Positions 5,694 through 32,000 of a stretch of DNA of 32,000 bases are shown piece after piece. A program made the translations under genes and the position numbers. A model generated the notes under the pieces. The model saw nothing but the letters and a program-made list of their open reading frames with translations. It was not told the DNA's origin and did not search any database. Within the stretch, counting starts at the first letter, position 1, and each line of letters begins with the position of its first letter. Source of the DNA: Ruminococcus albus 7 = DSM 20455 (lineage in GTDB: Bacteria > Bacillota > Clostridia > Oscillospirales > Ruminococcaceae); NCBI RefSeq assembly GCF_000179635.2, contig NC_014833.1:3600001-3632000 (forward strand), given 5' to 3'.

Positions 5694-6704
5694 TTACCCT
5701 ATGACTTTGTTTTTACCGCTTTTTTTGCCATAATAAAGCTTGTTATCAACTACCTGTATCCATTCATCCAAAGTTCTGCCTTTTCTTGCAGGAGCCACAC
5801 CGACAGTTATTGTAATGGGTATTGACTTTCCTTCAAATTCAACAGGAGATGAAGCAATATCAGAACGTAATTTTTCGATAATTTTCATAACTTCATCATC
5901 ATTGTTGAACAGTATAAGGAACTCCTCACCGCCCCACCTTGCTATATCACAACCTGCACAGGTATCCTTCAATTTCTTAGATATAACTTTAAGCACTTCG
6001 TCACCGGCATTGTGACCGTAAACATCATTTATTGTCTTAAAATCGTCGATATCCGCCATCGCCAGCACAGCAGTTTCTTTCATACTGTTGACTTCTGTAA
6101 GTCGGTCGATCATATAATGTCTGTTGTAAAGATCTGTCAGTCTGTCCTTGTGTGCCATTTGAGTCAGCTTGATCTCCGAATTGATTATAGAACGTATCTG
6201 CTTATTTATGTAGATAATCAAAAAAGAAAATACTATCAATGAATTTGTGAACAAAAATAAAAGTGAGTATTTGTTATCCCTTTCATAAATAGGACCATTT
6301 ATCCGAACATACCCCATTATAATGAAATAAAATGCAGCCACACAAATACTGATATTCATAGGTCTGACAGTTTTTCCGCCCAATTTGAAAGCCAGATACT
6401 CTGAGGAATAAATAACAGGTATCATCGAAAAACAGTACAGATGAAATCCGTAACTATCACCGAGGCAGACGGTGGTTACCCCCATATACAAGGTTATCCA
6501 CGCATAAACTATCCATAAATAGGTATCAAGTTTATTTTTGTAGATGAGAATAAAATTAAAAATATATAAAAACAGCGTCGGTATACTGAAATAAACAAGA
6601 AAATCAGCATCAAGCTTTTTAAAAAATATCATAAGAAAGAAAACTATGAAAATTAAAGCTATATTCACACCGAAAGTCAGCTTTTTAATACCTTTATAAT
6701 TCAA
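5694..6704 (-). CDS. Membrane-bound diguanylate cyclase (GGDEF domain)
   Basis: The N-terminal ~170 aa are hydrophobic multi-TM. The C-terminus carries RLTDLYNRHY, DIDDFKTINDVYGH and the active-site motif GGEEF (RWGGEEFLILF). Confidence 0.85.
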   Translation of the reverse strand: MNYKGIKKLTFGVNIALIFIVFFLMIFFKKLDADFLVYFSIPTLFLYIFNFILIYKNKLDTYLWIVYAWITLYMGVTTVCLGDSYGFHLYCFSMIPVIYSSEYLAFKLGGKTVRPMNISICVAAFYFIIMGYVRINGPIYERDNKYSLLFLFTNSLIVFSFLIIYINKQIRSIINSEIKLTQMAHKDRLTDLYNRHYMIDRLTEVNSMKETAVLAMADIDDFKTINDVYGHNAGDEVLKVISKKLKDTCAGCDIARWGGEEFLILFNNDDEVMKIIEKLRSDIASSPVEFEGKSIPITITVGVAPARKGRTLDEWIQVVDNKLYYGKKSGKNKVIG

Positions 6705-6986
6705 AGATGTCTCCCCCTTTCAACATTCATATAATTCCATATTAATCATAACACATTATGAATAATTTTGCAACAAAAAAAACAATTTAACCCTAAACAA
6801 AAGCGTAAATCGTTTTTTGTTGGAAATACCCAAAATTCGCCCAATATATTCAAAAGGCATGATACAAGAAAATATCATGTCCCTTTATATTTTAAATATT
6901 TAATTCAAATATAACGTAGCTTTCTTTTCTTGATTTATTCAAGTAAGCAAAAGTTGTCTATTATGCATATTTCAAACAAATACTAT

Positions 6987-7014
6987 TGATTTTTCTGATA
7001 TAATATGCTATAAT
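6987..7014 (+). promoter_or_regulatory. SigA-type promoter with extended -10
   Basis: TTGATT (6987-6992), 16-nt spacer, TGcTATAAT (7006-7014), upstream of the 7053/7062 ORF. Confidence 0.5.
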
Positions 7015-7052
7015 ATATATAATTAAAGACAAATAACAATTGTTTTTAGGAG

Positions 7053-7292
7053 ATGAAGTATATGATGACTTTTTGGGTACTATTTGTTAATGATTTTTCT
7101 AAGAATGAGCGCTATACAAAAGTATACACAGCTATGATGGAAGCATATAATGAAATGGAGAGAATTAACCCCAGCGGCAGCAACCCTAACATGTTAACTA
7201 CGGTATCAAGACATAGTTTTAGAAAGAGGACAAAAGACTTTGAAAAGATGAATAATGAGTATTTCAAACAGCATGGCAAATATGCTTTTTAA
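7053..7292 (+). CDS. Hypothetical small protein (start more likely ATG 7062)
   Basis: AGGAG at 7048-7052 abuts ATG 7053, so the in-frame ATG at 7062 has better spacing. Promoter upstream and terminator downstream. Confidence 0.45.
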   Translation: MKYMMTFWVLFVNDFSKNERYTKVYTAMMEAYNEMERINPSGSNPNMLTTVSRHSFRKRTKDFEKMNNEYFKQHGKYAF

Positions 7293-7348
7293 AACACGAT
7301 ATTAATGATTTAATTACTGACGTCATAAGTTAATAAAGTAAAATAAGT

Positions 7349-7384
7349 AATCCCTTTACCTAATTGGCAAAGGGATTATTTGTT
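7349..7384 (+). terminator. Rho-independent terminator
   Basis: AATCCCTTT (7349-7357) pairs with AAAGGGATT (7369-7377), followed by ATTATTTGTT. Confidence 0.55.
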
Positions 7385-7386
7385 AT

Positions 7387-7494
7387 CTATTCGTCTTCTT
7401 CATACCCACTACATTCATGCTTATGTTCACAAAATTCGCATTCACATAAATCACTATAATTTCCTGTTTGCCAACAGATTTCATTATAGTTCAT
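7387..7494 (-). CDS. Possible 35-aa Cys-rich peptide (MNYNEICWQTGNYSDLCECEFCEHKHECSGYEEDE)
   Basis: My own translation of the minus strand. AGGTGA RBS about 5 nt upstream of the ATG. Below the ORF-track size cutoff. Confidence 0.3.
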   Translation of the reverse strand: MNYNEICWQTGNYSDLCECEFCEHKHECSGYEEDE

Positions 7495-7699
7495 AATATT
7501 CACCTTCTTCTATCTTCCATTTTAGGAAGAATAATACTTAAAGAAAAATTTTTTTCATCATGTGTTGTTTACTATATTTATCTAAAGCGTCTGATAATTT
7601 TTGTATTATAAACTAAATGTTATCAAGTGTATGGTTGTTTAATTTTATTGTTATTTTTGAATTGTGAATATTATTTTCTCTACTCATTATGTTATATTA

Positions 7700-7734
7700 A
7701 AATTCCTCGTGAGAAAAGTTATTTTCTCACGAGG
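7700..7734 (-). terminator. Terminator immediately 3' of the tRNA-Trp fragment
   Basis: Perfect 13-bp stem CCTCGTGAGAAAA (7705-7717) / TTTTCTCACGAGG (7722-7734) with a 4-nt loop. On the minus strand it is followed by AATTTTAAT. Confidence 0.65.
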
Positions 7735-7738
7735 ATAG

Positions 7739-7783
7739 CAGGGGCACCAAGGATCGAACTCGGGACACGCGGTTTTGGAGACT
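7739..7783 (-). pseudogene. Truncated tRNA-Trp(CCA): 3' half only; putative att site of the integrated element
   Basis: The minus strand reads GTCTCCAAAACCGCGTGTCCCGAGTTCGATCCTTGGTGCCCCTGC. This gives the anticodon loop CTCCAAA, a T-arm CCGAG-TTCGATC-CTTGG and the 3' acceptor strand TGCCCCT plus G. The sequence 5' of it (TTATTTAA...) cannot form the D-arm or the 5' acceptor strand. Confidence 0.75.
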
Positions 7784-7929
7784 TAAATAACTTGTAATGA
7801 GTTATAAACACCTGATTTATTAGTACCTAACAACTTCTCCATGAAATCAATACATTATACCATACTAAATTTAATTAGTCAACATCACATTTAGTGTGGC
7901 TAAAGACACATTTATAACAACGATAAAAG

Positions 7930-7962
7930 ATAGCGTTTGACAGAAGTCAGGCGCTATTTTTT
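7930..7962 (+). terminator. Hairpin plus T6 at the element edge
   Basis: ATAGCGTTTGAC (7930-7941) pairs with GTCAGGCGCTAT (7946-7957) as 12 bp including two G-U pairs, loop AGAA, then TTTTTT. Confidence 0.45.
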
Positions 7963-8050
7963 ATGGCAGCGGCAGGGTCGCTCCCTGCGGGCAGTGCTTA
8001 GTGTTTTTCTCACTGCCCTTCCCGCTGTCAATAGATTGAAAAACACTAAG
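7963..8050. promoter_or_regulatory. Structured GC-rich region upstream of parA (candidate operator/centromere)
   Basis: Three pairings: CAGGG-TCGCT-CCCTG (7973-7987); GGGCAGTG (7989-7996) with CACTGCCC (8011-8018); and a perfect 12-bp inverted repeat CTTAGTGTTTTT (7997-8008) with AAAAACACTAAG (8039-8050). Confidence 0.35.
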
Positions 8051-8085: not shown

Positions 8086-8883
8086 ATGAAAAACACAAAA
8101 ATAATTGCAGTAGCAAATCAGAAAGGCGGCGTGGGCAAAACCACTACTACAATCAATGTAGGTGCAGCACTTGCTCTTACGGGCAAAAAGGTCCTGCTAA
8201 TTGACTTGGACACTCAGGAATCCCTTTCAAATTTCCTCGGGATCTACAATGCAGAGAACAATATAGGTAAAGCGCTCTACAAAACAGTTAACCGCGAAAC
8301 TATTGACCTTGCAGATTACATTGTCACAAACGAGGTCAACAGAGTTGACATAATCCCGGCAGAACTGAACACAATGCAGCGTATCGCCATAGACCTTGTA
8401 TCAGTCAGAAGCAAAGAAACAGTTTTTCGCAGATTGATAAATCAGAACAGTGAACTTCTTAGCAGATACGACTACATCCTGCTTGACTGCCCACCGTCCC
8501 TTAATGTTATATTGGATAACGCACTTACGGCAAGCCGTTATGTGCTTATCCCCTGTCAGGCTCACCCTCTGAGCTATCCCCCGCTGCCTAATCTCCTATT
8601 ACAGATAAATGAGATTCAAGCAGAACTGAATGAAAACATAGAAATCATCGGAATTGTGCCAACAATGGTTGACAGGAGCAACAACAGCAAAACAACGGTC
8701 GAAATGCTCCGCGGTAATTACTCTGACATTGTTTTTGAAAGCGAGATAGAACGTATGGCTGTTGCCGCCAACTCTGCACTCACTGAAAAGGCAGTTGTTC
8801 TGTCAAACGCTAAGGACAACCGCGTATCACGTGAATACAAGGCTCTCACTGATGAGCTTGTAAGTCGTATCGAGGGGGTGTAA
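8086..8883 (+). CDS. parA: ParA/Soj-family partition ATPase
   Basis: Deviant Walker A KIIAVANQKGGVGKTTT, followed by LIDLDTQ and ILLDCPPSL. Confidence 0.9.
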   Translation: MKNTKIIAVANQKGGVGKTTTTINVGAALALTGKKVLLIDLDTQESLSNFLGIYNAENNIGKALYKTVNRETIDLADYIVTNEVNRVDIIPAELNTMQRIAIDLVSVRSKETVFRRLINQNSELLSRYDYILLDCPPSLNVILDNALTASRYVLIPCQAHPLSYPPLPNLLLQINEIQAELNENIEIIGIVPTMVDRSNNSKTTVEMLRGNYSDIVFESEIERMAVAANSALTEKAVVLSNAKDNRVSREYKALTDELVSRIEGV

Positions 8884-8886
8884 GGC

Positions 8887-9807
8887 ATGAAATTTGATAA
8901 AGTAAGTGAAACATTCTCCGAGAGAAAGGAAAAAGGAAGTATAAAAGAAAGCCTTATCTCAGCTGAGGAAGTTCTGAACGAGATAACCGAGATAGCTATG
9001 CACAAGCTTGATATGTACACAGACGAGGATGGAAATCAGCCTTTTGACATAGACGATGAAAAAGTTGAAGCCCTGAGCGAAAGTATAAAAGAGAATGGGC
9101 AGCTGGAACCTATCATCGTTCGTAAAAAGAATGGTAGGTATCAGATACTCAGCGGTCATCATAGATACCTCGCTCTGAAGTCGATAACTGCAATGTATGC
9201 ACTTGCAACTGTGGTCGATGTATCCGACCTTAAAGCCTACATGATAGTGTGCGAAAGCAACATCCATCATGCGGCTCCCCCGCCCTCTAAGCTTTGTAAG
9301 ATTTTCCTGCGGTATCGTGCCGCAGGAAAAGAAGAGAAGATAACCGCCGATCAGCTTGCTAAGATGTTCGGCATCAGCCGTGAACAGATGTATCGCATAA
9401 TTGCTATGGACACACTTACAACACCGATGCAGGAACTGGTCGATGCAGGACTTATCTCAACCAACAGCATAAAACAGCTGAGAACACTTACCCCTGACCA
9501 ACAGGATACGCTTGCTGACTATGTTTATAATGAGGACAAAAAGCTTAACAAGGCGAAATGTGACAAGGTCATAGATCTGTTTATCACTAATGCAAATGCA
9601 ACGGTAGAAGATATTGACGAGTGTCTGAACAGTGACGATAAAGAAAAGGAACCTGCCAACAACTACAATGCTATGAAGAAAATGAGCAAAGAACAGCTGG
9701 CTGACTATATTTTTGCAAACCTTGCAAGCTTTACTTCGTCAGAAAAAATCCTTTCTTTTCTCTGTGATAATATTGGAAAGGAGAAGCAAAATCTTGAAAA
9801 ACATTGA
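8887..9807 (+). CDS. parB: ParB-like N-terminal domain protein
   Basis: Sits 3 nt after parA. It has EPIIVRKKNGRYQILSGHHRYLA (ParB/Srx fold). The arginine patch reads GHHRYLA instead of GERRxRA. A plausible HTH lies around QLAKMFGISREQMYRII. Confidence 0.75.
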   Translation: MKFDKVSETFSERKEKGSIKESLISAEEVLNEITEIAMHKLDMYTDEDGNQPFDIDDEKVEALSESIKENGQLEPIIVRKKNGRYQILSGHHRYLALKSITAMYALATVVDVSDLKAYMIVCESNIHHAAPPPSKLCKIFLRYRAAGKEEKITADQLAKMFGISREQMYRIIAMDTLTTPMQELVDAGLISTNSIKQLRTLTPDQQDTLADYVYNEDKKLNKAKCDKVIDLFITNANATVEDIDECLNSDDKEKEPANNYNAMKKMSKEQLADYIFANLASFTSSEKILSFLCDNIGKEKQNLEKH

Positions 9808-18769: not shown

Positions 18770-21700
18770 ATGTTCAAAAGCAAATTTTTGAAGAGAATCG
18801 GCACCGGGATAATGGCTGCTGTATGCGCTTTTTCTTTTGCGACCGCAGAAGTGAAACCGATGAAAGCAAAAGCTGCATCAGAAGCAGTTTTCCCAAACGC
18901 CGATCAGATCATCGCACAGGCAGCTACTCTTCTTGGAGGTAATTATTCAAGCGCCGGTGGTAAAGGCTATTACAATATGTATGATGCCAACAAAACACCT
19001 GTCGCTTACGATGTGAATTATACTCGTTCAGCCGGGGTAGACTGCTCAGGATTGGTGTACTATACCATGACAAAGCTTGGTTACTCAACATCAGGTTTCG
19101 CATGGAATCACCCCGTCCCCGTAGATACTACTCATTGGCTGAGCTACACCAATCCTACTATTTCATACAAAGGCACTACTAAGCCCCTTGAAATAGAAAA
19201 AATAAGAGTAAGTACCAACAATCACCCCTACTGGGAAAGGTCAAACGGTAGTACGATAGAGCCCGGCTCTATTGTTATCGGTGATCCTACGAATGGCAGT
19301 ACTGATCATGCATGGATTTACATGGGCGAATTCGATAATAAAGCAGCTGTTAAAGCTTATCTGAAAAAGATAGGTGTAAATCCTGCATATATCAACGATA
19401 AAAACATTCATGATAATGGTGACGGTGGTAATCACTGGCGCATTGAAGCACAGAGTACATACGGTGTTGTTATAAATAATGACACTAGCGGTAAATACAC
19501 AGGTGCCATGAGAGTTTCTTCTTTCAAATTAAACAGAAATGCCATGTTCACAATACAGAAAACTGAAATCGGCACCGGTAAGATAGTCGGAATTTCTAAG
19601 GTTGACGGAACATCAGCCGTATATGGTGTTTATACAGATAAAAGCTGTAAAAACAAAGTTGATGAAATAAAAATTAACAAAAACGGACTTGGCACTCTTA
19701 GCTTACCTTACGGTACATATTACGTCAAGGAAATAAAAGCTCCGACAGGCTATAATGTATCGAATGATGTTTATACTCTTGTTCCGAATGAAACTGTCAT
19801 CGTTAATGAGGTTAAAACGACTGGATCTATTCGCATTAACAAGACAGCTGAAGATGGTGTAAAAAACAGAGAATTTATGATCAGTTGGTTTGAAAACGGT
19901 GCAATCCATAGAGAACGTTTAAACACCAATACACTCGGTGTAGCAAAGATTGACGGGCTTAACCTCTATGATTATGACGGTGATGTTATAAATTACACTG
20001 TTTCAGAGATAAACAACGATCTGAGAAATGTTAATCCTAGCGCACAGACTGTTACTCTTTCAGAAGCCGATCCCAACAAGGATTATACCGTAGACCTCTA
20101 TTTTAACAATGAGTATAAATACGGCTCTCTCGTATTACACAAAACTCATACAGACGGCAACACCGATGATCGTACCTTTACTGTAACAGGTAACGGCGAA
20201 ACTTATACAGTAGTAACTCATGGCAATGAGCCTGCGGCACTTGAACATCTGCGTATGTACGATGATGATAACAACATCATTACATATACAATTCATGAGG
20301 AAAATGTTCCGGATAGATATGTTCAGCCCGAAGATCAGGAAGTAACTCTCCTGCTTAATCAGGTCACAGATGTATACATCGTTAACAGCCATGTTCCCGG
20401 TACACTCATACTCAAAAAGAGACATGAGGACGGTAAAACAGGTGACCGTAATTTCACAATCACAGGCAGTGATGGCTCCGTCAGAACTGCTGTAACACAT
20501 GGTAATGAGCCTACAGTTATTTCTGACCTTGATATCTATGATACTGACAGCAACCTCATAACATACACTATCCATGAGGAAAATACACCTGATAGATATG
20601 AACAGCCTGCGGATCAGGATGTTACTCTTGAATACAATAAATCCAAGACTGTAACAATCGTCAACAGACTGAAACGCGGTTCAATATCTATCCACAAGCA
20701 GAACAGTGAAACACTTGAGCCTGTTGCCGGTGCAAAATATGAAGTGACCTGCAACGAAGATATTTACAGCTCAAATGGCAAGGATATGATTCCTGCCGGC
20801 GAGCCCATATACACACTGGAAACCAACGAGGACGGCAACGCAGCAACACCTAAGTCCCTGCCTATCGCTCACACATATACACTCACAGAAGTATACGTGC
20901 CGGACGGATATATTTCAGGTGATCCTATCACTATCGAAATGAGTGATGACGGAACACAGCTTGAATACCGTACAACCATAAACGAAAAGCCCACAATCGT
21001 AAAGATAAGCAAGAAATCTCTCACAACAAAAGAAGAACTTGAAGGTGCAAAACTCACAGTAACCGATGATAACGGTACAATAATTGATGAATGGACATCT
21101 ACAACTACTGAACACACTATCATTGGTAAGCTTACAGTCGGCAAGGAATACACTCTGACAGAGGTTCTCGCTCCTGACGGATTCCTCACTGCGGAAAGCA
21201 TCAAGTTTACTGTAAATGAAGATGGCTCCTCAAATCACATTACGATGTATGATGAGGAAAAATCAGGCAGTATCGAAGTTCACAAAACTACCGAAGGCAT
21301 GATAAACGTTGAGGGAATAAGCTTTACACTCAGCGGTACATCAGACCACGGCACAGAAGTAAACACACAAGCAATTACTAACTCAGACGGTATTGCAACC
21401 TTTGAGAAGATCCCTGTGGGTACATACACCATCACCGAAGATGCTGAATCAGTGCCTTATGCGTACCTTGTGGCTGATGAACAGGAAGTATCTGTTATGT
21501 ACGCAGAAACAACTATCGCTGAGATTTACAACGATGAAAAGTCGGGAACTGTTGAGGTCCACAAGAATACTAAGAACAAGGGCAATATCGCTGATATCAA
21601 TTTCGTTCTTGAGGGTACATCTGACAGCGGCAGAGATGTAAAGCTGGAAGCTGTGACCGATAAGGATGGTAAGGCAGTATTTAACAAGGTGCCTGTTGGT

Positions 21701-22516
21701 ACATACACCATCACAGAGGACAAGGAAACAGTACCTACTGCATACCTTGTGGCTGAAAAGCAGGAAGTAAATGTACTGTATGCCGAAACATCTATTGCAG
21801 AAGTTTTCAATGATGAAAAGACAGGCAGCATTGAGATCCACAAGACAACCGAGGGTATGATAAACATCGAGGGTATCAAGTTTATCCTTGAGGGTGTATC
21901 CGACAGTGGAACAGATGTTCACGTTGAAGCTATTACTGACAAGGACGGTAAAGCTACTTTCAGTAATGTTCCTGTTGGAACATACTCTATCACAGAGGAT
22001 GAAAAGACTGTACCGACTGCATATATGGTAGCCGAAGAAACCGAGGTTACTGTGCTGTACGCTGAAACAGTAACTAAGGAGATATTCAACGGTGAAAGAT
22101 CCGGCAGCATCAGTATTCAGAAACAGACTGAGGGAATGAAAGATATCGCCGGAATTAATTTTGTGCTTGAAGGTACATCTGACAGCGGCAGAACTGTGAA
22201 GCTTGAAGCTGTGACCGACAAGGACGGTAAAGCTACATTCAATGGTGTGCCGATAGGTACATACACCATAACCGAGGACGGTAAATCTGTGCCTGCGGCT
22301 TATTTTGTAGCTGATGCTCAGACAGTAACTGTATTTGAAGCACAGACTTCAAACATTACTTTCGAGAACAAGAAAAAGCCTGATTCTTCAACTCCTTCTA
22401 CTTCATTAACCACCACAAGCAATCCTTCAACCGGAGTTGCTGCTAACGGTGCGTTTGCTGTAACAGCAATTGCACTCGCTCTCATGATCATTTCAAGAAA
22501 GCGTAAGAACAGCTAA
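18770..22516 (+). CDS. Sortase-anchored surface protein: N-terminal NlpC/P60 peptidoglycan hydrolase plus Cna-B/SpaA-type repeat domains
   Basis: Signal peptide. NlpC/P60 Cys motif GVDCSGLVYY and His motif DHAWIYMG. Many ~90-aa repeats with the pattern G(S/T)I.I.K....G...F.L.G....DG.A.F..(V/I)P.GTY.I.E. The C-terminus has NPSTG, a hydrophobic segment and RKRKNS. Confidence 0.9.
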   Translation: MFKSKFLKRIGTGIMAAVCAFSFATAEVKPMKAKAASEAVFPNADQIIAQAATLLGGNYSSAGGKGYYNMYDANKTPVAYDVNYTRSAGVDCSGLVYYTMTKLGYSTSGFAWNHPVPVDTTHWLSYTNPTISYKGTTKPLEIEKIRVSTNNHPYWERSNGSTIEPGSIVIGDPTNGSTDHAWIYMGEFDNKAAVKAYLKKIGVNPAYINDKNIHDNGDGGNHWRIEAQSTYGVVINNDTSGKYTGAMRVSSFKLNRNAMFTIQKTEIGTGKIVGISKVDGTSAVYGVYTDKSCKNKVDEIKINKNGLGTLSLPYGTYYVKEIKAPTGYNVSNDVYTLVPNETVIVNEVKTTGSIRINKTAEDGVKNREFMISWFENGAIHRERLNTNTLGVAKIDGLNLYDYDGDVINYTVSEINNDLRNVNPSAQTVTLSEADPNKDYTVDLYFNNEYKYGSLVLHKTHTDGNTDDRTFTVTGNGETYTVVTHGNEPAALEHLRMYDDDNNIITYTIHEENVPDRYVQPEDQEVTLLLNQVTDVYIVNSHVPGTLILKKRHEDGKTGDRNFTITGSDGSVRTAVTHGNEPTVISDLDIYDTDSNLITYTIHEENTPDRYEQPADQDVTLEYNKSKTVTIVNRLKRGSISIHKQNSETLEPVAGAKYEVTCNEDIYSSNGKDMIPAGEPIYTLETNEDGNAATPKSLPIAHTYTLTEVYVPDGYISGDPITIEMSDDGTQLEYRTTINEKPTIVKISKKSLTTKEELEGAKLTVTDDNGTIIDEWTSTTTEHTIIGKLTVGKEYTLTEVLAPDGFLTAESIKFTVNEDGSSNHITMYDEEKSGSIEVHKTTEGMINVEGISFTLSGTSDHGTEVNTQAITNSDGIATFEKIPVGTYTITEDAESVPYAYLVADEQEVSVMYAETTIAEIYNDEKSGTVEVHKNTKNKGNIADINFVLEGTSDSGRDVKLEAVTDKDGKAVFNKVPVGTYTITEDKETVPTAYLVAEKQEVNVLYAETSIAEVFNDEKTGSIEIHKTTEGMINIEGIKFILEGVSDSGTDVHVEAITDKDGKATFSNVPVGTYSITEDEKTVPTAYMVAEETEVTVLYAETVTKEIFNGERSGSISIQKQTEGMKDIAGINFVLEGTSDSGRTVKLEAVTDKDGKATFNGVPIGTYTITEDGKSVPAAYFVADAQTVTVFEAQTSNITFENKKKPDSSTPSTSLTTTSNPSTGVAANGAFAVTAIALALMIISRKRKNS
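21257..22372 (+). repeat. Four in-frame tandem repeats of 279 bp (93 aa) inside the surface-protein gene
   Basis: Units start at 21257, 21536, 21815 and 22094, each beginning E(K/R)(S/T)G(S/T)(I/V)... A more diverged pair lies at about 20123-20680. Confidence 0.85.
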
Positions 22517-23967: not shown

Positions 23968-24375
23968 TTAGATCCTATCAAGTAACTCCGACGGTTTGAG
24001 CGCAGGAATTTTACTATCCTTAAAATCACGAATGTTTCTGGTTACAATAAAATCCGCATTGATCCTACTTGCCTGACACATCTGTAAAGCATCTTCATAA
24101 TCAGAAGTGAGCATTTCTGCCGCTGAATTAAGGTCGGATGATTTAAGATCAACGACTTCAAAAATCATAAGTATCTGCTTTATTAGCTGCTCCGTTTTCT
24201 TAGGATCAAGTTCCTTGCGCAGGATGTACACAATATTCGGTACAGTGAGTGCAGAAACATATCCATCGATTTTGTTTACCTCGCAGTATTTCCAAATCTT
24301 TGATGAATTTTCTACAAAATCCGGTCGATTGCAGAGAACGTCAAGGATCACATTTGTATCAATCAAGATCTTCAT
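23968..24375 (-). CDS. vapC: PIN-domain toxin (VapC-type ribonuclease)
   Basis: MKILIDTNVILDVL opens with the first PIN acidic residue. 135 aa. Overlaps the upstream antitoxin gene by 17 nt. Confidence 0.85.
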   Translation of the reverse strand: MKILIDTNVILDVLCNRPDFVENSSKIWKYCEVNKIDGYVSALTVPNIVYILRKELDPKKTEQLIKQILMIFEVVDLKSSDLNSAAEMLTSDYEDALQMCQASRINADFIVTRNIRDFKDSKIPALKPSELLDRI

Positions 24376-24803: not shown

Positions 24804-25607
24804 TTGAGAATCCAAGTATCCGCGTCCAGGTATACCCCGCCTGCGGGAGATACCAACAACACAAGAGGTTTTGCATCAGTCAAGTTCCAGAACGACAATG
24901 GTGATGAGTATATGCTCGAACGTATAACTATCAGAGAGTCAGCCAACGGAATGTACGTCAGCCTACCGACCGTAGCACGTAATGCCAAGGTCAACGGTTC
25001 TCCGGTGTATGATTCAAACGGTAATCCCAAAAAAGAATTTACAGAGGTCCTGCACCCTGTAAACAACGCTGCACGTACTGAATTGTGTAACGCCATCATG
25101 GAGCGCTGGAGGGCGAATGACAGAGAGTATGCCGAGTTCAATATCCTTGGTAATACTCAGTTTGAGATGAGCAAGATCAACGTCAACCTGCACAGCGATC
25201 AGGCAAAACACCTTGTCGGAATCGGCTCGGTAACATTCGGTGATGCTTTTAAACTTGACAGCATCATGGTCAAAGAGGGCAGCAAGGGCGAATTCCTTGA
25301 TTTGCCCAGCTATCGCACAAAAAAATATGATCCCGAAACAAAGCAGATAGTGATAGGCGCAGACGGACAGCCTGAGATAGACTACCGTGATTTGTTCCAC
25401 CCGAACACCCGAGAAGCCTATGATAAGCTGACCAATGCAGTCCTGGATAGTCTTCACGCTAAACAACAGGCACAGGATAATAGCTATGCTGCATACGAAC
25501 AGCAGCAGAACAACTATAATCAGCAGAGTGCTGCCGCTGCCATTCCCGACTACGATCCATTCAGTGGTTTTGAAGATATAACACCGCAGTACGGACGCGG
25601 AAGATAA
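24804..25607 (+). CDS. Tandem SpoVG-like domain protein with a Gln/Asn-rich tail (TTG start)
   Basis: AAAGGAGG lies 8 nt before TTG 24804. Two segments match the SpoVG pattern: ...RGFASVKF...ITIRESANGMYVSLP...EFTEVLHPVN..AR.EL..AI and ...GIGSVTFGDAFKLDSIMVKEGSKGEFLDLPS...YRDLFHPNTREAYDKLTNAVL. Confidence 0.6.
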   Translation: MRIQVSASRYTPPAGDTNNTRGFASVKFQNDNGDEYMLERITIRESANGMYVSLPTVARNAKVNGSPVYDSNGNPKKEFTEVLHPVNNAARTELCNAIMERWRANDREYAEFNILGNTQFEMSKINVNLHSDQAKHLVGIGSVTFGDAFKLDSIMVKEGSKGEFLDLPSYRTKKYDPETKQIVIGADGQPEIDYRDLFHPNTREAYDKLTNAVLDSLHAKQQAQDNSYAAYEQQQNNYNQQSAAAAIPDYDPFSGFEDITPQYGRGR

Positions 25608-25728: not shown

Positions 25729-28700
25729 ATGAGATTAAATAATTCAATAGAAAACTGGCAGAATTATCTCAGCTTTTCATCAAATCTTTATTCTTATGGT
25801 TATGCGGATATCATGAAAGTGTATTCCGCAGAACCTACCGCAACTGCCGTTGCCACACTGGAAGAATGGAACAGAATGGGCAGATTTATAAATCCCAAAG
25901 CTAAAGGTTTCATTTTCAGTGACGGACATATACGCTATGACATTAAGGATACAAACGGCGCGTCCGTAAGAAAATGGCAGTTTACAAGTGGTCACATTCC
26001 CTTTTATTATGACCATTTCAACGCCATGAACATAACAGATAATGTTATGCTCGATAATGGAAATGACTTCTCAGTAAACATCTGTGATTTTCTCTGCGAA
26101 ATGATGTCAAAAGACAAGTCCCTTTCCGGTGTTGTTAATGAGAATGTAAGGGAAATTGCGGCTTTATCTACTACGTATGTTATCTGCGAAAGACTTGGTA
26201 TTGATAAAAATGAAACATATCTCGACTTATCTGACATTACAAAACTGTCAGATGAAGAAGTCAACCTTACAGCTACAATTACCGCGATATATGCAAGGTC
26301 AATGCTTAAAGCTGCTCAAAGGACAGTATCTTCTGTAACAAAGGAACAGATAGAAGAACGCAGCAGAAATGTCATGTTTACAGCCGAAGAACTTAGCGAA
26401 TTTGAAGATATTACCGATGCAGTATATGACGAGGAAATCTCTGAGGAAACTACTGTTGAAACGGCAGAAGATGAAGAAAAGAAGTATACTGTACCCGAAA
26501 CACTTGAAAATGTCACAGCCGACAATAACAATGATGATATTATTCAGCAAAATAAAAGTGTGGTTACTGTTCAGCCCGTATCTGAAGTATCAGATAGCGG
26601 CTTAACTGCCGAAAAACAGCAAGAAATACTTGAAACTGCACTTATGATAGAAAACAGCTCTATCAATAAAGAACGTATCAACGCTTTGTTTTCGGGTAAC
26701 ATCGGTGTTAATGCTCTGACCTCTTATGTAAGGACTAATTACAAAGGTAAAAGCTATAACTCGACCAATGATGATATTATCAGCGCATATCTTGCAAGAA
26801 ATGATTGTTTCGTGGTAAGATACAATATTGATGGAAATGCGGGAAATCTGTCATTTGATTGGCAGACCGTAACAAACACCATAGATCAACTTATCCGTGA
26901 GGATAGATTTATAACACCCAAAGAAAAAGACGATACAGCGGAAGAAAAAACCTCGCTTACGCTGCATAAAGTCGGTGACTTTTGGGAAATGTACGATAAT
27001 GATGCCCGGGCTGCTTCTGAAGCACTCGGGCTTTATCTTTCAAGGAAAGGAAAAGTCGCTATGTGCGGCTTTCCTGATAAAGAGAAAGATAACTACACTC
27101 AAAGACTGCGTGATGCAGGATTTATCATTATAAATGATAATATCCCGGAGAATAAAAAAGAAACTCTCCTTGACAGCATTACCATTAAGTTCGGAACAGA
27201 AAACGATCCCGAACTGACAACAGAAAGCAAGCTGCTTGACGATCTCATAACTAAATACAGAAATGAACATAACGGTAACGATATGAGTTTCGCGCTTGCA
27301 AATGCCGTAATCGAGTATCTTGATGAAAAGCAGCATACTGAGCGTACCGATAAAGACAACAAAGTTGGCTGGTACAAGAAAACATGGTTTACAGTTACCG
27401 CAACAATAAGCGGCGAACAGTTTTCCTATGAGGCAAGATATGATATAGGTGACGGTAAAGGAACAGGCGGCGGCTCTATAATCGACCATATTGAGCAGTT
27501 TCAGACCGAGATAATCCGTCAGAAACCATATCCATACAATACAGAAGATAGTCAAAACACAGCCAAAAATGCAGTTGACATTTTAATACCGTATCTGAAA
27601 GCTAATACCGAGCTGACAGAAGAAGAAAAGCTGATACTGTGGGAACTGAAAAGAGATAATCCGATCAAGGGTATACAGCCTGTGTTGGATCCTAAACTAC
27701 TCACTCACTATATACCGTCCGGACTTCCGCTGATAGCTGATAACAATGATGTTTTCTTTGTATTACGGCATGATCGTTTCTATCATCATAACAGACAGGA
27801 AATTGCAGATTTCTTTGAAACTCATGCAAATGCCAAAGAACGTGAGCAGTTTATCCGTAAAGCTATAAACGAAGAATATTCACAGCTTTCAACAGATGAA
27901 GAAAAGACCATGGGCTACAAAACATTCGAGGATGGTCTTTGCATCTGGGAAGGTAATTATATGTCCCACACAGCCGAGAATTTCTATTCTTGGGAAGATG
28001 TTGTAACATTATTCGCTGATATGATGCAACGCGGTGAATATCTTGACACTCAGATAATTGATACACCTGAAACGGTTGAAGATAACGTACAGGAAGATGC
28101 TGCTGCACAGCTTTCATTTTTCGGTGAACCCGAAACAATGGCTGCCACAACAAAGCCAAAAAGCCGAAAGGATACATCTGAAATTGATACACGTCCAATG
28201 TTCAATGTAACCGATGATATGGTCAACTATGTTCTTAGATGCGGCAGTGCCACAAAAGGAACACTGGAGCGTATTATTGCGCAGTACCAAAAAGGCAAGT
28301 CCGATGCGGAAAACGGCGAGTTTCTCAGCCGTGAGTTTAATAGCAGTTTTCGTTCTGAGGATAATGGTCGAGGGTATGTATATTCAGAGAGTGAACTGAT
28401 CTCATCTTGGTGGGACAGAGAAAGATTGTGGGTAGGTGCAGGCGAAAGCGCACTTAACGCAAAAATGTACAATGTTGCACCATGGAATTTAATTGCTGCA
28501 CGAGTAGGTGAGCTGATTGAAAAAGGTCAGTTCTGTTCACAGGCTGTTATAGATCGTGCAGCTGAAATGGAAATAAAGGATATCGCAGACAAATTATGGT
28601 ATCTGCATCAGGATACCGACAATGAAGAATATCAGTATTTTATCCCGGATGAGATGTTTAAAGGCGGTTTTCCTGACAGTACCGAGAGAATAAAAAATGA

Positions 28701-31700
28701 TCTTATGGACAGCGATAAACTGCAAGACTACATTTCAGGGATGACAAAGTTTGTAAATGATTATGAGCAGAACAGAGATATACTCCGTTGGCATTTTCAT
28801 AGACCGCGTGAAACCTTAGAACGGCTGAAAGACCTGACTATCGAGCGCAAACAATTCAAAGCTGACCCTGATTTTGAGTTTATACCATCGTTCTTTATTT
28901 CCGAAGATGAAAAAAATCGTGTAATACAGCATTTTAACTATCAGACAAAATTCAAGATCCGAGATTATTTTGACGATGAAGAACGCACCACAAAAGATAA
29001 GGTTAAATTCCTGAACAACTTATATTCAGACGGCGGATTTGGCGATAGGGATACAAATTTTTATTACGGTAAAAAGGGCTATACCATAGTTCACTCCCCT
29101 GCTTACGATGAGTGGCAAGGCTGCACAGCCACAATGAACTGGAAAAACGTTGTTGTAAGAATAGACAGCCTTATCAAAATAGACAAATTTATCTCTGAGA
29201 AAGATAAAAAGGAACAGGAAAAGCTCATTCAGCAGAAGCTTTTTGAAGCTAAAAACAAGGAAGAACTTGAAAAGGCAAAAGAGAATATCCGAAACTTTTG
29301 GGAAAGCGAGTACGGTGGTGGCAGTGATGATTTTACCGATCTTCACAAAGTCGGCATAGCATACACTACCGTTGATCTGGACGATAGTCACTATATGGAA
29401 CTTCAGGTATATGCTGACCTTATGGACAATGCTCTGCGCTATTACATCGACAATGAACTTTACAAAGAAGAAAAATACGATGATCTTCATTCGTTCAATG
29501 AGGACGCACTTTCGGTTCTTGATTTTCAAGAACTCTATGACCAGTTCGATATCAGCAAACTGGAAGAAAAATATAATGCTTCAAAACACGAAAAAGAGTC
29601 TTTATCAGCGGAAATATCTGTTAATGCATCAGATAATGAGCTGACTGTAATGCAGTATGGTGCAGCACAGCGAAACCTCAAAGCATTTAATGAACTGTTC
29701 CCTGAGTTCATGCAGAAAGAATACGCTTATATGCGAATGGAAGCCGGGGATGCTTATGAACCGTTAAGCCTTGAATGGCTTTCGGAAGATACTTTCTCCA
29801 TAATGCATTTTTATGACCAGAACGGCGATTTGATGTATGACCCCGATGTTGTTATTAAGGTCGATGCTACTTCTGCGCAGGCAATAAGCTTTGAAAACTC
29901 AAGTCTTGGTATCTATGAAAGCTATACCAGCGGTTTATTTGACCAGGACGATTGCAATAACTTCGTAGAAAAATGGCTTGCGAACATCTCACATCAGGGT
30001 TACAAACCTGTGCGCATAAAAAATTACGATGATGAGATCGTACTTGATACAACATACTCTGAGTTGATGCACGAAAATAAAGCTGAACCTGATATTGACA
30101 GCGATATAATAGGCATTGACAAATTAAAGCGAAATGGCAGTGTAGTCTACTGGAGTTACTTCAATGAAGATGGTAACGATGGTAACGGACAGTTCATCGA
30201 AATGACCATAACCGAATTTGACATCAATGAAGCTGTAAAGGTAATGAGTGCTGCGGGTGGTCGTACCAAATTAGGCTATCAAACATTCATCAACTACATT
30301 GAAGATCACAGTTCTCAGATAGTCGTTGATAAGGGAACAGAAGATTTTGAGGATGTAAAAGCTGAATTTCTGAATGGCGAATACGATATTCAGGTCACAG
30401 CTGATAATGACAGCCGTGAACAGCTGATAGCTGATTTCATTGATAACACCGACCATACCAGAACACTTGTTCCCGATAACATCGGATACGCTATCGGCAT
30501 TTACAGCGGAGAAGCATTTGACAAAACAACTATCGACGAAAATACAAAGAAATACAAGGTAGTTGCTCAGATCGACCGTAAAAACCGCATAGCTGTCAAG
30601 TGGGATGAACCCGATCTCCCTGAGAGCGTAAAGGATGCCATATCAAAGGTAGCACTTACCTATGACATCGTGGAAGATGATACTCAAAAAGCAGAGGATG
30701 CTGCATTGGACTTTCTCGGCTTAGATGAAGTCGATGATGAGTACACCATACTACGTAATAAAAATGATGCGGTTGAGAATGATACAGTTCAGCTTTCCAT
30801 CTTCGGAACACCCGTGTTCACAGAGGAAAATACTCCCGTTGTGCCTGTAAAAGTCGGTGCTGAAATAGAGTATCAGGACAGGACCTATACAGTAACGGCT
30901 ATCAAGCCCGAACACAATGAAATAGATCTTCTCGATCAGCATACCGGATGGTATCCTATAACTCGCGTAGAACCACTTGACGTATTTATATCTGAATACG
31001 ATGCTAAAACAGCAAAATCTGTAGTTGAAGCAGCTGCGGTAGTCAACGGACCTCAGAACTATACTATTACAGATGATGAGTTAGGAGTTGGTACACCGAA
31101 AGAAAAATACAAGGCAAACATTGCTGCTATTAAACTGCTGAAACAGATAGAAGCCGAGGACAGGCAGGCAACAGTCGAGGAACAGGAAGTGCTTGCACAT
31201 TATGTCGGTTGGGGCGGACTTTCGGGAGCTTTTGAAGCAACTAACAGTTCATGGGAAAATGAATACTCAGAACTGAAAAATCTGCTTACACCGGAGGAAT
31301 ACAATGCAGCACTCAATTCCGTGGTAAATGCACACTTTACAAGCCCGGTAATTATCAGAAAGATGTATACCGCACTGGAAAACTTCGGCTTTAAGGGCGG
31401 CAAGGTGCTGGAACCGTCCTGCGGTATCGGTAATTTCTTAGGCTGTGCTCCGACCGACAAAGCGGCTAACTATCAGTTCACGGGAGTTGAGATAGACAGT
31501 ATCACGGGACGTATAGCAAAACAGCTTTATCCGCAGGCAAAAATACAAGTTACTGGCTTTCAGAATGCTGATGTTAAAGACAATTACTTCGATGTAGTAA
31601 TAGGTAATGTACCGTTTGCAAACTACAGCGTGACGGACCGTAAGTATAACAAGTCAAATCACCTGATACATGACTATTTCATACTGAAATCCCTCGATCT

Positions 31701-32000
31701 GACACGCGCAGGCGGTGTAGTTGCAGTAATTACTTCATCTGGTACAATGGATAAGGTGTCCGCAAAGGTACGAACAGAGATCAGCAACAAAGCAAAGCTG
31801 ATTGGTGCTATAAGGCTGCCTGACACAGCATTTGAAAAAAATGCCGGAACAAATGCAGTCGCAGATATCCTTTTCCTGCAAAAGCGTTCAGAACCAAATG
31901 CAGACTATGAAGACTGGCTTGAAGTTGACCGCGAAACATATTACGGTCTGCCTATAAATCAGTATTTCATAGATCACCCCGAAATGGTCTGCGGAACAGT
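25729..32000 (+). CDS. Giant multidomain (polyvalent-type) protein, 5' part; includes a MutS-domain-I-like module and an N6-adenine DNA methyltransferase; continues beyond the window
   Basis: I translated this frame codon by codon from ATG 25729 (AAAGGA RBS) to 32000 and found no stop. It is missing from the ORF track because it has no stop in the window. Recognised motifs: VGDFWEMYDNDARAASEALGLYLSRKG..MCGFP (about 26953-27135), methyltransferase motif I VLEPSCGIGNF (31405-31437) and motif IV GNVPFA (31603-31620). Confidence 0.85.
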   Translation, partial: MRLNNSIENWQNYLSFSSNLYSYGYADIMKVYSAEPTATAVATLEEWNRMGRFINPKAKGFIFSDGHIRYDIKDTNGASVRKWQFTSGHIPFYYDHFNAMNITDNVMLDNGNDFSVNICDFLCEMMSKDKSLSGVVNENVREIAALSTTYVICERLGIDKNETYLDLSDITKLSDEEVNLTATITAIYARSMLKAAQRTVSSVTKEQIEERSRNVMFTAEELSEFEDITDAVYDEEISEETTVETAEDEEKKYTVPETLENVTADNNNDDIIQQNKSVVTVQPVSEVSDSGLTAEKQQEILETALMIENSSINKERINALFSGNIGVNALTSYVRTNYKGKSYNSTNDDIISAYLARNDCFVVRYNIDGNAGNLSFDWQTVTNTIDQLIREDRFITPKEKDDTAEEKTSLTLHKVGDFWEMYDNDARAASEALGLYLSRKGKVAMCGFPDKEKDNYTQRLRDAGFIIINDNIPENKKETLLDSITIKFGTENDPELTTESKLLDDLITKYRNEHNGNDMSFALANAVIEYLDEKQHTERTDKDNKVGWYKKTWFTVTATISGEQFSYEARYDIGDGKGTGGGSIIDHIEQFQTEIIRQKPYPYNTEDSQNTAKNAVDILIPYLKANTELTEEEKLILWELKRDNPIKGIQPVLDPKLLTHYIPSGLPLIADNNDVFFVLRHDRFYHHNRQEIADFFETHANAKEREQFIRKAINEEYSQLSTDEEKTMGYKTFEDGLCIWEGNYMSHTAENFYSWEDVVTLFADMMQRGEYLDTQIIDTPETVEDNVQEDAAAQLSFFGEPETMAATTKPKSRKDTSEIDTRPMFNVTDDMVNYVLRCGSATKGTLERIIAQYQKGKSDAENGEFLSREFNSSFRSEDNGRGYVYSESELISSWWDRERLWVGAGESALNAKMYNVAPWNLIAARVGELIEKGQFCSQAVIDRAAEMEIKDIADKLWYLHQDTDNEEYQYFIPDEMFKGGFPDSTERIKNDLMDSDKLQDYISGMTKFVNDYEQNRDILRWHFHRPRETLERLKDLTIERKQFKADPDFEFIPSFFISEDEKNRVIQHFNYQTKFKIRDYFDDEERTTKDKVKFLNNLYSDGGFGDRDTNFYYGKKGYTIVHSPAYDEWQGCTATMNWKNVVVRIDSLIKIDKFISEKDKKEQEKLIQQKLFEAKNKEELEKAKENIRNFWESEYGGGSDDFTDLHKVGIAYTTVDLDDSHYMELQVYADLMDNALRYYIDNELYKEEKYDDLHSFNEDALSVLDFQELYDQFDISKLEEKYNASKHEKESLSAEISVNASDNELTVMQYGAAQRNLKAFNELFPEFMQKEYAYMRMEAGDAYEPLSLEWLSEDTFSIMHFYDQNGDLMYDPDVVIKVDATSAQAISFENSSLGIYESYTSGLFDQDDCNNFVEKWLANISHQGYKPVRIKNYDDEIVLDTTYSELMHENKAEPDIDSDIIGIDKLKRNGSVVYWSYFNEDGNDGNGQFIEMTITEFDINEAVKVMSAAGGRTKLGYQTFINYIEDHSSQIVVDKGTEDFEDVKAEFLNGEYDIQVTADNDSREQLIADFIDNTDHTRTLVPDNIGYAIGIYSGEAFDKTTIDENTKKYKVVAQIDRKNRIAVKWDEPDLPESVKDAISKVALTYDIVEDDTQKAEDAALDFLGLDEVDDEYTILRNKNDAVENDTVQLSIFGTPVFTEENTPVVPVKVGAEIEYQDRTYTVTAIKPEHNEIDLLDQHTGWYPITRVEPLDVFISEYDAKTAKSVVEAAAVVNGPQNYTITDDELGVGTPKEKYKANIAAIKLLKQIEAEDRQATVEEQEVLAHYVGWGGLSGAFEATNSSWENEYSELKNLLTPEEYNAALNSVVNAHFTSPVIIRKMYTALENFGFKGGKVLEPSCGIGNFLGCAPTDKAANYQFTGVEIDSITGRIAKQLYPQAKIQVTGFQNADVKDNYFDVVIGNVPFANYSVTDRKYNKSNHLIHDYFILKSLDLTRAGGVVAVITSSGTMDKVSAKVRTEISNKAKLIGAIRLPDTAFEKNAGTNAVADILFLQKRSEPNADYEDWLEVDRETYYGLPINQYFIDHPEMVCGT

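Follow-up and report, generated by a model that had tools for sequence, protein, structure and literature searches.

A minimal MutS domain I core in a giant polyvalent protein of a putative integrative conjugative element of Ruminococcus albus 7

We analyzed a 32,000-nucleotide stretch of the genome of Ruminococcus albus 7 = DSM 20455 (RefSeq assembly GCF_000179635.2, contig NC_014833.1, positions 3,600,001 to 3,632,000 of the forward strand), hereafter called the window, which carries the first part of a giant open reading frame (ORF). The protein encoded by this ORF contains a minimal core, approximately 65 residues long, of domain I of the mismatch-recognition protein MutS (MutS-I). The module has the Phe-x-Glu wedge, and it lacks helix A, strand 6, and five residues of a loop. 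The best explanation is probably that this minimal domain, as part of a polyvalent protein encoded by an integrated conjugative element of Ruminococcus, acts as an accessory DNA-binding unit. The finding holds but is already known: MutS-I was described in the polyvalent proteins of conjugative elements of Firmicutes and Bacteroidetes by Iyer, Burroughs, Anand, de Souza, and Aravind (2017; J Bacteriol 199:e00245-17; PMC5512222; below, Iyer et al., 2017), and the window protein is one more member of this published class. An earlier note on this DNA, made from the sequence alone, had called the fusion of such a module to a methyltransferase unusual. This description does not hold, because the arrangement was published in 2017 and two nearly identical proteins in the databases, P0002 and P0003 (Ruminococcus sp.), are already annotated with PF01624 and PF18840. 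Current understanding is therefore left unchanged. What is added here is a quantification of the Phe-x-Glu conservation, the limits of the minimal core, a subtype that has a short loop and no helix A, and variants with two copies or without the Phe. The residual interest lies in the biochemistry of a MutS domain I that is separated from the rest of MutS. The main features are as follows.

25729–31998, plus strand: giant polyvalent-protein ORF; its first 2,090 amino acids lie in the window, and the window end cuts the ORF
26953–27147, plus strand: MutS domain I core, amino acids 409–473 (Pfam, AlphaFold2 [AF2], Foldseek, and hhalign)
26974–26988, plus strand: GDFWE motif, amino acids 416–420 (alignment to Escherichia coli MutS)

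Sequence and structure of the MutS domain I core

The giant ORF starts with the ATG at 25729 on the plus strand, which is preceded by an AAAGGA ribosome-binding site, and its frame remains open up to the last base of the window, giving a protein of at least 2,090 amino acids. Its orthologue in R. albus AR67 (L001:3060-13223) has 3,387 amino acids and is colinear with and 96.3% identical to the giant ORF; in the part covered by the window, the two differ by 140 synonymous and 77 non-synonymous codon changes. An antisense ORF of 171 amino acids (27040–27555, minus strand) overlaps the MutS-I region. We rejected it as a real signal and regard it as a mechanical by-product, because the plus-strand frame is kept over 3,387 codons and synonymous changes outnumber non-synonymous ones.

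Translation of 26953–27135 on the plus strand gives exactly the 61 residues (amino acids 409–469 of the giant ORF) in which the earlier note had recognized a module resembling MutS domain I. The profile search that the note had proposed bore this out. The Pfam model MutS_I (PF01624), with a gathering cut-off of 20.6 bits, matched the whole window protein with 34.6 bits (E = 2.5e-8), a 167-amino-acid excerpt with 38.6 bits (E = 1.4e-9), and the AR67 orthologue with 35.4 bits at amino acids 406–465. The envelope in the window protein likewise covers amino acids 406–465 (26944–27123) and spans positions 14 to 78 of the 113 positions of the profile. When the PDB sequences were searched with phmmer, 18 MutS/MSH6 chains were retrieved, together with one unrelated marginal match (4fo5, E = 0.5). 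The phmmer alignment pairs the segment with residues 26–88 of E. coli MutS and is free of gaps through the GDFWE block. In this alignment, GDFWE corresponds to GDFYE (34–38 in E. coli), DA to DA, LSRKG to LTKRG, and GFP to GIP, and the sole gap is a five-residue deletion in the loop after the glycine of LS(R/K)(K/R)G. Phe418 (26980–26982) and Glu420 (26986–26988) are the counterparts of E. coli MutS Phe36 and Glu38. The match is far beyond chance. No Pfam match to MutS_II–V or the MutS ATPase was found in the 2,090 amino acids of the window protein or the 3,387 amino acids of the orthologue, in agreement with the observation in the earlier note that no MutS ATPase follows the module. On these sequence matches, the window protein is assigned to the MutS_I domain family in a core-only form, and it is not a MutS protein.

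The fold was predicted with AF2 from an alignment, A1, of amino acids 384–520 of the window protein with 39 diverse homologous domains. Residues 409–473 were modeled at a pLDDT of ∼97 in the order strand-strand-helix-strand-strand-helix-strand, with both flanks at low confidence and no sixth strand. In a Foldseek search of the PDB with this model, all of the top 50 matches were domain I of MutS or MSH proteins (MutS of Taq, E. coli, and Neisseria, and human MSH3 and MSH6), with a best E of 3e-5. Many of these matches had a root-mean-square deviation (rmsd) of 0.9–1.2 Å over 63–66 columns at a probability of 1.00, so that the predicted fold superposes on MutS domain I, as the earlier note had suggested should be examined, with an rmsd of ∼1 Å over ∼65 residues. 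When A1 was compared by hhalign with the N-termini of five canonical MutS proteins, the probability was 99.9 with E = 4.9e-32 over 79 columns, and the match ended at the strand equivalent to VAICEQ. We regard the identity of the segment as MutS domain I as practically certain.

The match covers only a part of that domain. A full-length domain I comprises ∼113 profile positions with helix A and the C-terminal strand, and the window copy does not extend over all of them. Helix A (TPMMQQY..K...P) is missing in the window copy, which falls in the short-loop subtype without this helix, and some relatives in A1 keep it. All of the polyvalent family lacks the C-terminal ∼30 residues of MutS domain I (V.R.V.RI.TPGT). 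The proposal of a MutS-I module therefore stands as far as the domain is genuine, and it is to be narrowed to a core of ∼65 residues in place of the whole domain.

Homologues and conservation of the Phe-x-Glu motif

A word-index homologue search was too coarse for this family, yielding one fragment with the 111-amino-acid domain and six proteins with amino acids 1–700. An HMMER search with amino acids 300–620 against 1.84 billion representative proteins gave 442 matches at E ≤ 1e-3, of which 150 were listed. A local jackhmmer search over all retrieved proteins identified 83 MutS-I instances in 76 proteins. The Walker A pattern of MutS (GPNMxGKS) occurred in only two of the MutS-I proteins collected.

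Conservation was calculated for 74 non-MutS domains, a set from which canonical MutS, its N-terminal fragments, and near-identical orthologues of the query had been excluded. The Phe was found in 69 of the 74 domains (93%) and the Glu in 73 (99%), although these figures may be inflated, as most homologues were retrieved with a query bearing the motif. The conservation of both residues among homologues, on which the earlier note had made its claim depend, was thus observed. The preceding Gly (71 domains), the Ala of DA (73), and the Pro of GxP (73) were also conserved. Furthermore, both F and E were intact in all 11 relatives that were retrieved via LPD25 and in which MutS-I occupies a different position. 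With the Phe and the Glu kept in more than 90% of the polyvalent MutS-I domains, the question of DNA binding by this module of ∼70 residues is a worthwhile one.

The family also contains variants. Six relatives (P0091, P0059, P0132, P0096, P0046, and P0155) have two MutS-I copies, at spacings that range from near-adjacent to far apart, and in three of the six the Phe has been replaced by S, A, or Y in one copy. This loss in one copy is reminiscent of MutS dimers and of MSH2-MSH6, in which domain I is used asymmetrically. The P0006/P0007 subfamily is very abundant in human-gut Firmicutes and includes many fragments (P0157–P0193). In the closely related P0004 and P0005, MutS-I is entirely absent, indicating that the module was gained or lost as a cassette. 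A homologue search with A1 also returned 38 short proteins with MutS_I only. These were dropped as candidates for stand-alone MutS-I proteins, since most are frameshifted or truncated fragments of the P0006/P0007 type on short contigs; P0176 and P0177 are possible exceptions to this origin.

Using tblastn, we found only canonical mutS genes in plasmids, at ∼30–40% identity. The corresponding search of phages returned only unannotated human-gut "Bacteriophage sp." contigs (MT838062, MT835624, MT837444, and MT835489), which contain MutS-I-like stretches of 34–38% identity.

Domain architecture and proposed role of the module

The domains of the giant protein follow one another in the order ArdC-N-like header, unannotated domain, MutS-I, LPD25, DUF6908, N6-adenine methyltransferase, and SNF2 helicase. 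Apart from MutS-I, the following were located in the window.

25729–26373, plus strand: ArdC-N-like header, predicted to bind single-stranded DNA (ssDNA), amino acids 1–215 (Pfam ArdcN in homologues, AF2, and Foldseek)
27271–27504, plus strand: LPD25, amino acids 515–592 (Pfam PF18840, E = 3e-13)
29680–30003, plus strand: DUF6908, amino acids 1318–1425 (Pfam PF21849, E = 1e-18)
31384–31812, plus strand: N6-adenine methyltransferase of the Eco57I/N6_Mtase type, amino acids 1886–2028 (Pfam Eco57I, E = 2e-7, with weaker generic methyltransferase matches)

The methyltransferase domain, which has an NVPF catalytic-type motif at amino acid 1960, lies in the same polypeptide as the MutS-I module, so the fusion itself was described correctly in the earlier note. 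The AR67 orthologue gave the same Pfam succession, with MutS_I followed by LPD25 at 515–592, DUF6908 at 1318–1425, and the Eco57I-type methyltransferase at 1943–2028. Beyond the point that corresponds to the window end, the orthologue also contains SNF2-rel_dom, ResIII, and Helicase_C at amino acids 2563–3081. A methyltransferase and SNF2 helicase pair is therefore present, with the former seen in the window and the latter in the colinear orthologue. With this many unrelated domains in 3,387 amino acids, the protein is a polyvalent protein. Seven relatives were scanned with Pfam, and MutS_I was detected in all seven. Six of these are large proteins of many domains, which include LPD25, LPD18, DUF6908, DUF7007, YodL, Toprim/DUF3991, a nucleotidyltransferase, N6-MTase, or SNF2, and the seventh, P0046 (721 amino acids), has only MutS_I and LPD25.

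The N-terminal 215 amino acids are homologous to the N-termini of dozens of related giant proteins. This header stands at the front of most of 34 non-redundant relatives, and it is common to 21 of 31 long MutS-I proteins. The header of the window protein itself gave no direct Pfam match (E up to 10) and no phmmer match in the PDB. Among 25 aligned homologous N-termini, six matched Pfam ArdcN (best E = 2.6e-9). The AF2 model of the header had a pLDDT of 91, and its top two Foldseek matches in the PDB were ArdC of plasmid R388 (6i89 and 6sna), at probabilities of 0.99–1.0 with weak E values of 7e-3 and 2.4e-2; Rad4/XPC ranked ninth. Because six of the 25 homologues match ArdcN and the top Foldseek matches are ArdC, we read this region as a predicted ArdC-N-like header.

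Two further observations concern the regions between the annotated domains. Directly upstream of MutS-I lies a conserved domain of ∼100 amino acids (amino acids ∼305–400, ∼26640–26930) without a Pfam match; it is common to P0004–P0007 and has the motif W..V...ID.LI..DR[YF][IL]T..EK. Amino acids 1201–1300 (29329–29628), just upstream of DUF6908, are 78% identical to AR67, as against 96% for the protein overall, and are thus locally fast-evolving.

The closest known systems are the polyvalent MutS-I proteins themselves. These likewise have an isolated MutS-I in a giant protein with LPD25, an adenine methyltransferase, and an SNF2 ATPase, in a Firmicute host. Their ArdC-N and their conjugative-element context correspond to the predicted header and the putative element described here, and we found no essential difference between them and the window protein. 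In the published set, MutS-I and ArdC-N occur together in ∼80% of the polyvalent cases, polyvalent proteins are the only occurrence of MutS-I outside MutS, from which it was probably derived, and LPD25 is specific to the polyvalent proteins of conjugative elements (Iyer et al., 2017). A follow-up paper of 2018 repeats the point on MutS-I.

The module shares with the bacterial MutS domain I (E. coli ∼2–115, 1e3m; Taq, 1ewq) the motifs GDF(Y/W)E, DA, L(T/S)(K/R)(R/K)G, and G(I/F)P, strands 1–5, and helices B and C. It differs in the missing helix A and final strand and in a loop between strands 3 and 4 that is five residues shorter. The window protein also lacks the connector, core, clamp, ATPase, and dimerization module of MutS, which makes repair signaling impossible. 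ArdC of pSa/R388, an ssDNA-binding anti-restriction protein, resembles the window protein in that amino acids 1–215 of the latter are similar, in their predicted structure, to the ArdC-N fold. The role proposed for the two is also the same, namely to travel with the transferred DNA or to coat it. In contrast, ArdC has no MutS-I, and no zincin metallopeptidase domain was detected in the window protein with Pfam. DarB of phage P1 is likewise a large protein in which an SNF2-type helicase comes after an N6-adenine methyltransferase, a likeness of domain order. However, DarB is packaged in the phage head and has neither MutS-I nor ArdC-N. In P1, this pair acts in cis to shield the entering DNA from type I restriction, and the methylase-SNF2 pair of polyvalent proteins has been interpreted as a DarB-like protection against restriction (Iyer et al., 2017).

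A role of the module in reading DNA or tethering the protein to it is drawn from the crystal structures of MutS with DNA and from the proposal of Iyer et al. (2017) that MutS-I may recognize short ssDNA stretches of the element soon after entry, and we consider the chances of such a role to be roughly even. The targeting to incoming or heteroduplex DNA that was put forward in the earlier note is essentially the same proposal. In such a mechanism, Phe418 would insert beside an unpaired, mismatched, or extrahelical base, with hairpins, junctions of single- and double-stranded DNA, and heteroduplex patches of the newly transferred strand as candidate targets. Through MutS-I and ArdC-N, the methyltransferase-helicase pair would stay attached to the element's own DNA in the early phase after its entry, and this DNA would thus be modified and shielded from restriction during establishment. 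The module would not signal repair, because the parts of MutS that act downstream of mismatch binding (the clamp, ATP hydrolysis, and the recruitment of MutL) are missing. If the module does read DNA, mobile elements would be using a mismatch or lesion reader during DNA entry.

Several points weigh against this explanation. The DNA affinity of MutS comes largely from its clamp domains and its dimer (structures 1e3m and 1ewq), so a truncated domain I on its own may have little or no affinity for DNA. Helix A and strand 6 are missing from the domain, and its loop between strands 3 and 4 is shortened. In the P0006/P0007 subfamily the Phe has been lost, with NGNYLF or NGQFEF in place of GDFYE, and the wedge is therefore not indispensable in every member; the conservation figures, as stated above, may be too high. 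No relaxase, coupling protein, VirB4, or type IV secretion system genes were found within the available sequence, so the conjugative nature of the element is inferred from marker genes. A literature search found no experimental study of a polyvalent MutS-I, nor of MutS domain I in an anti-restriction context.

Some of these points lead to another interpretation, in which the module descends from MutS domain I but has ceased to bind DNA lesions, and either persists as a structural relic or acts as a protein-protein adaptor, that is, as a spacer or docking surface. The truncation of the core, the separation of the module from every other MutS domain, and the loss of the Phe from the P0006/P0007 subfamily and, in three of the six two-copy proteins, from one copy are all consistent with it. 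However, the Phe, the Glu, and the G, DA, and GxP positions are kept across proteins of 17–32% overall identity, which is difficult to account for unless the DNA-contacting hairpin is under selection. The eukaryotic MSH2 and MSH3 do not use the Phe wedge and do not keep the motif; here, in contrast, the motif is kept. We therefore consider a relic or adaptor unlikely.

The mismatch-contacting motif is kept while all signaling parts of MutS are missing, and this combination also fits a decoy that acts against mismatch repair, covering mismatches or extrahelical bases in heteroduplex or hairpin DNA of the incoming element, hiding them from the host MutS, and preventing nicking or rejection by mismatch repair. 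It would suit a protein class for which early delivery or expression, as a counter to host defenses, has been proposed. However, judging from the MutS structures, one domain I that lacks the clamps would be an unlikely winner in competition with the MutS dimer. An element that integrates or partitions need not form heteroduplex with the host DNA, and the frequent pairing of MutS-I with ArdC-N and the methylase-helicase points to tethering and not to competition. The decoy is an attractive idea without direct support, and we rate it as somewhat less probable still than the relic or adaptor. If it were true, the masking of mismatches from the recipient's MutS would give a mobile element an anti-mismatch-repair function. 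The broader proposition that polyvalent proteins truly read mismatched or extrahelical bases, either to find imperfect hairpins of the entering strand (single-stranded promoters or priming sites) or to mask mismatches from the recipient's MutS, is suggested by the nearly general retention of the wedge in a domain stripped of the MutS signaling parts, but it is a speculative one to which we give little weight.

Finally, a chance resemblance or a non-coding or mis-framed stretch is a negligible alternative, for which we found no support, the overlap with the antisense ORF being mechanical, and which is refuted by the Pfam (E = 1.4e-9), hhalign (E = 4.9e-32), and Foldseek (50 of 50) results and by the conserved frame of 3,387 codons.

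Genomic surroundings of the giant gene

To the left of ∼6700, chromosomal genes are encoded on the minus strand, among them FolD, Lgt, two M16 peptidases, and a GGDEF protein. The GC content falls to 31% in 6001–8000, where the gene orientation flips. The chromosomal genes and the GC drop mark the left boundary of the element. The plus-strand block that starts at 8086 also carries genes for an RNase T-type exonuclease and for DUF3848 and DUF3849 proteins, in addition to the following features.

8086–8883, plus strand: ParA, at the left end of the mobile element (Pfam AAA_31/CbiA/ParA)
8887–9807, plus strand: ParB (Pfam ParB_N/HTH_ParB)
18770–22516, plus strand: NlpC/P60-like surface protein with SpaA repeats (seven SpaA repeats, E = 6e-72; NLPC_P60 match weak, 19.3 bits against a cut-off of 23)
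23968–24375, minus strand: gene for a PIN-domain toxin (Pfam), within the plus-strand block
24804–25607, plus strand: SpoVG-domain protein, directly upstream of the giant gene (Pfam SpoVG, E = 1.8e-22, in two stretches)

On its sequence matches, the surface protein is classified as an adhesin and cell-wall hydrolase of the kind that is typical of Gram-positive conjugative elements. The neighbors of the AR67 orthologue include a PcfJ-like gene and a gene for a DUF3991-Toprim primase. Judged by these marker genes, the gene set appears to be that of a Gram-positive integrative conjugative element. A megablast search of plasmids with 24 kb of the element found nothing.

At the left boundary of the element, neither ARAGORN nor Rfam detected a complete tRNA or other RNA. 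On the minus strand, at 7693–7790, a sequence similar to a tRNA 3′ half, GTCCCGAGTTCGATCCTTGGTGCCCCTGC, precedes a terminator hairpin that is perfect, CCTCGTGAGAAAA...TTTTCTCACGAGG. The tRNA-like sequence occupies the 31%-GC stretch that separates the chromosomal genes from ParA, and it is thus a possible att remnant marking where the integrated element ends on the left.

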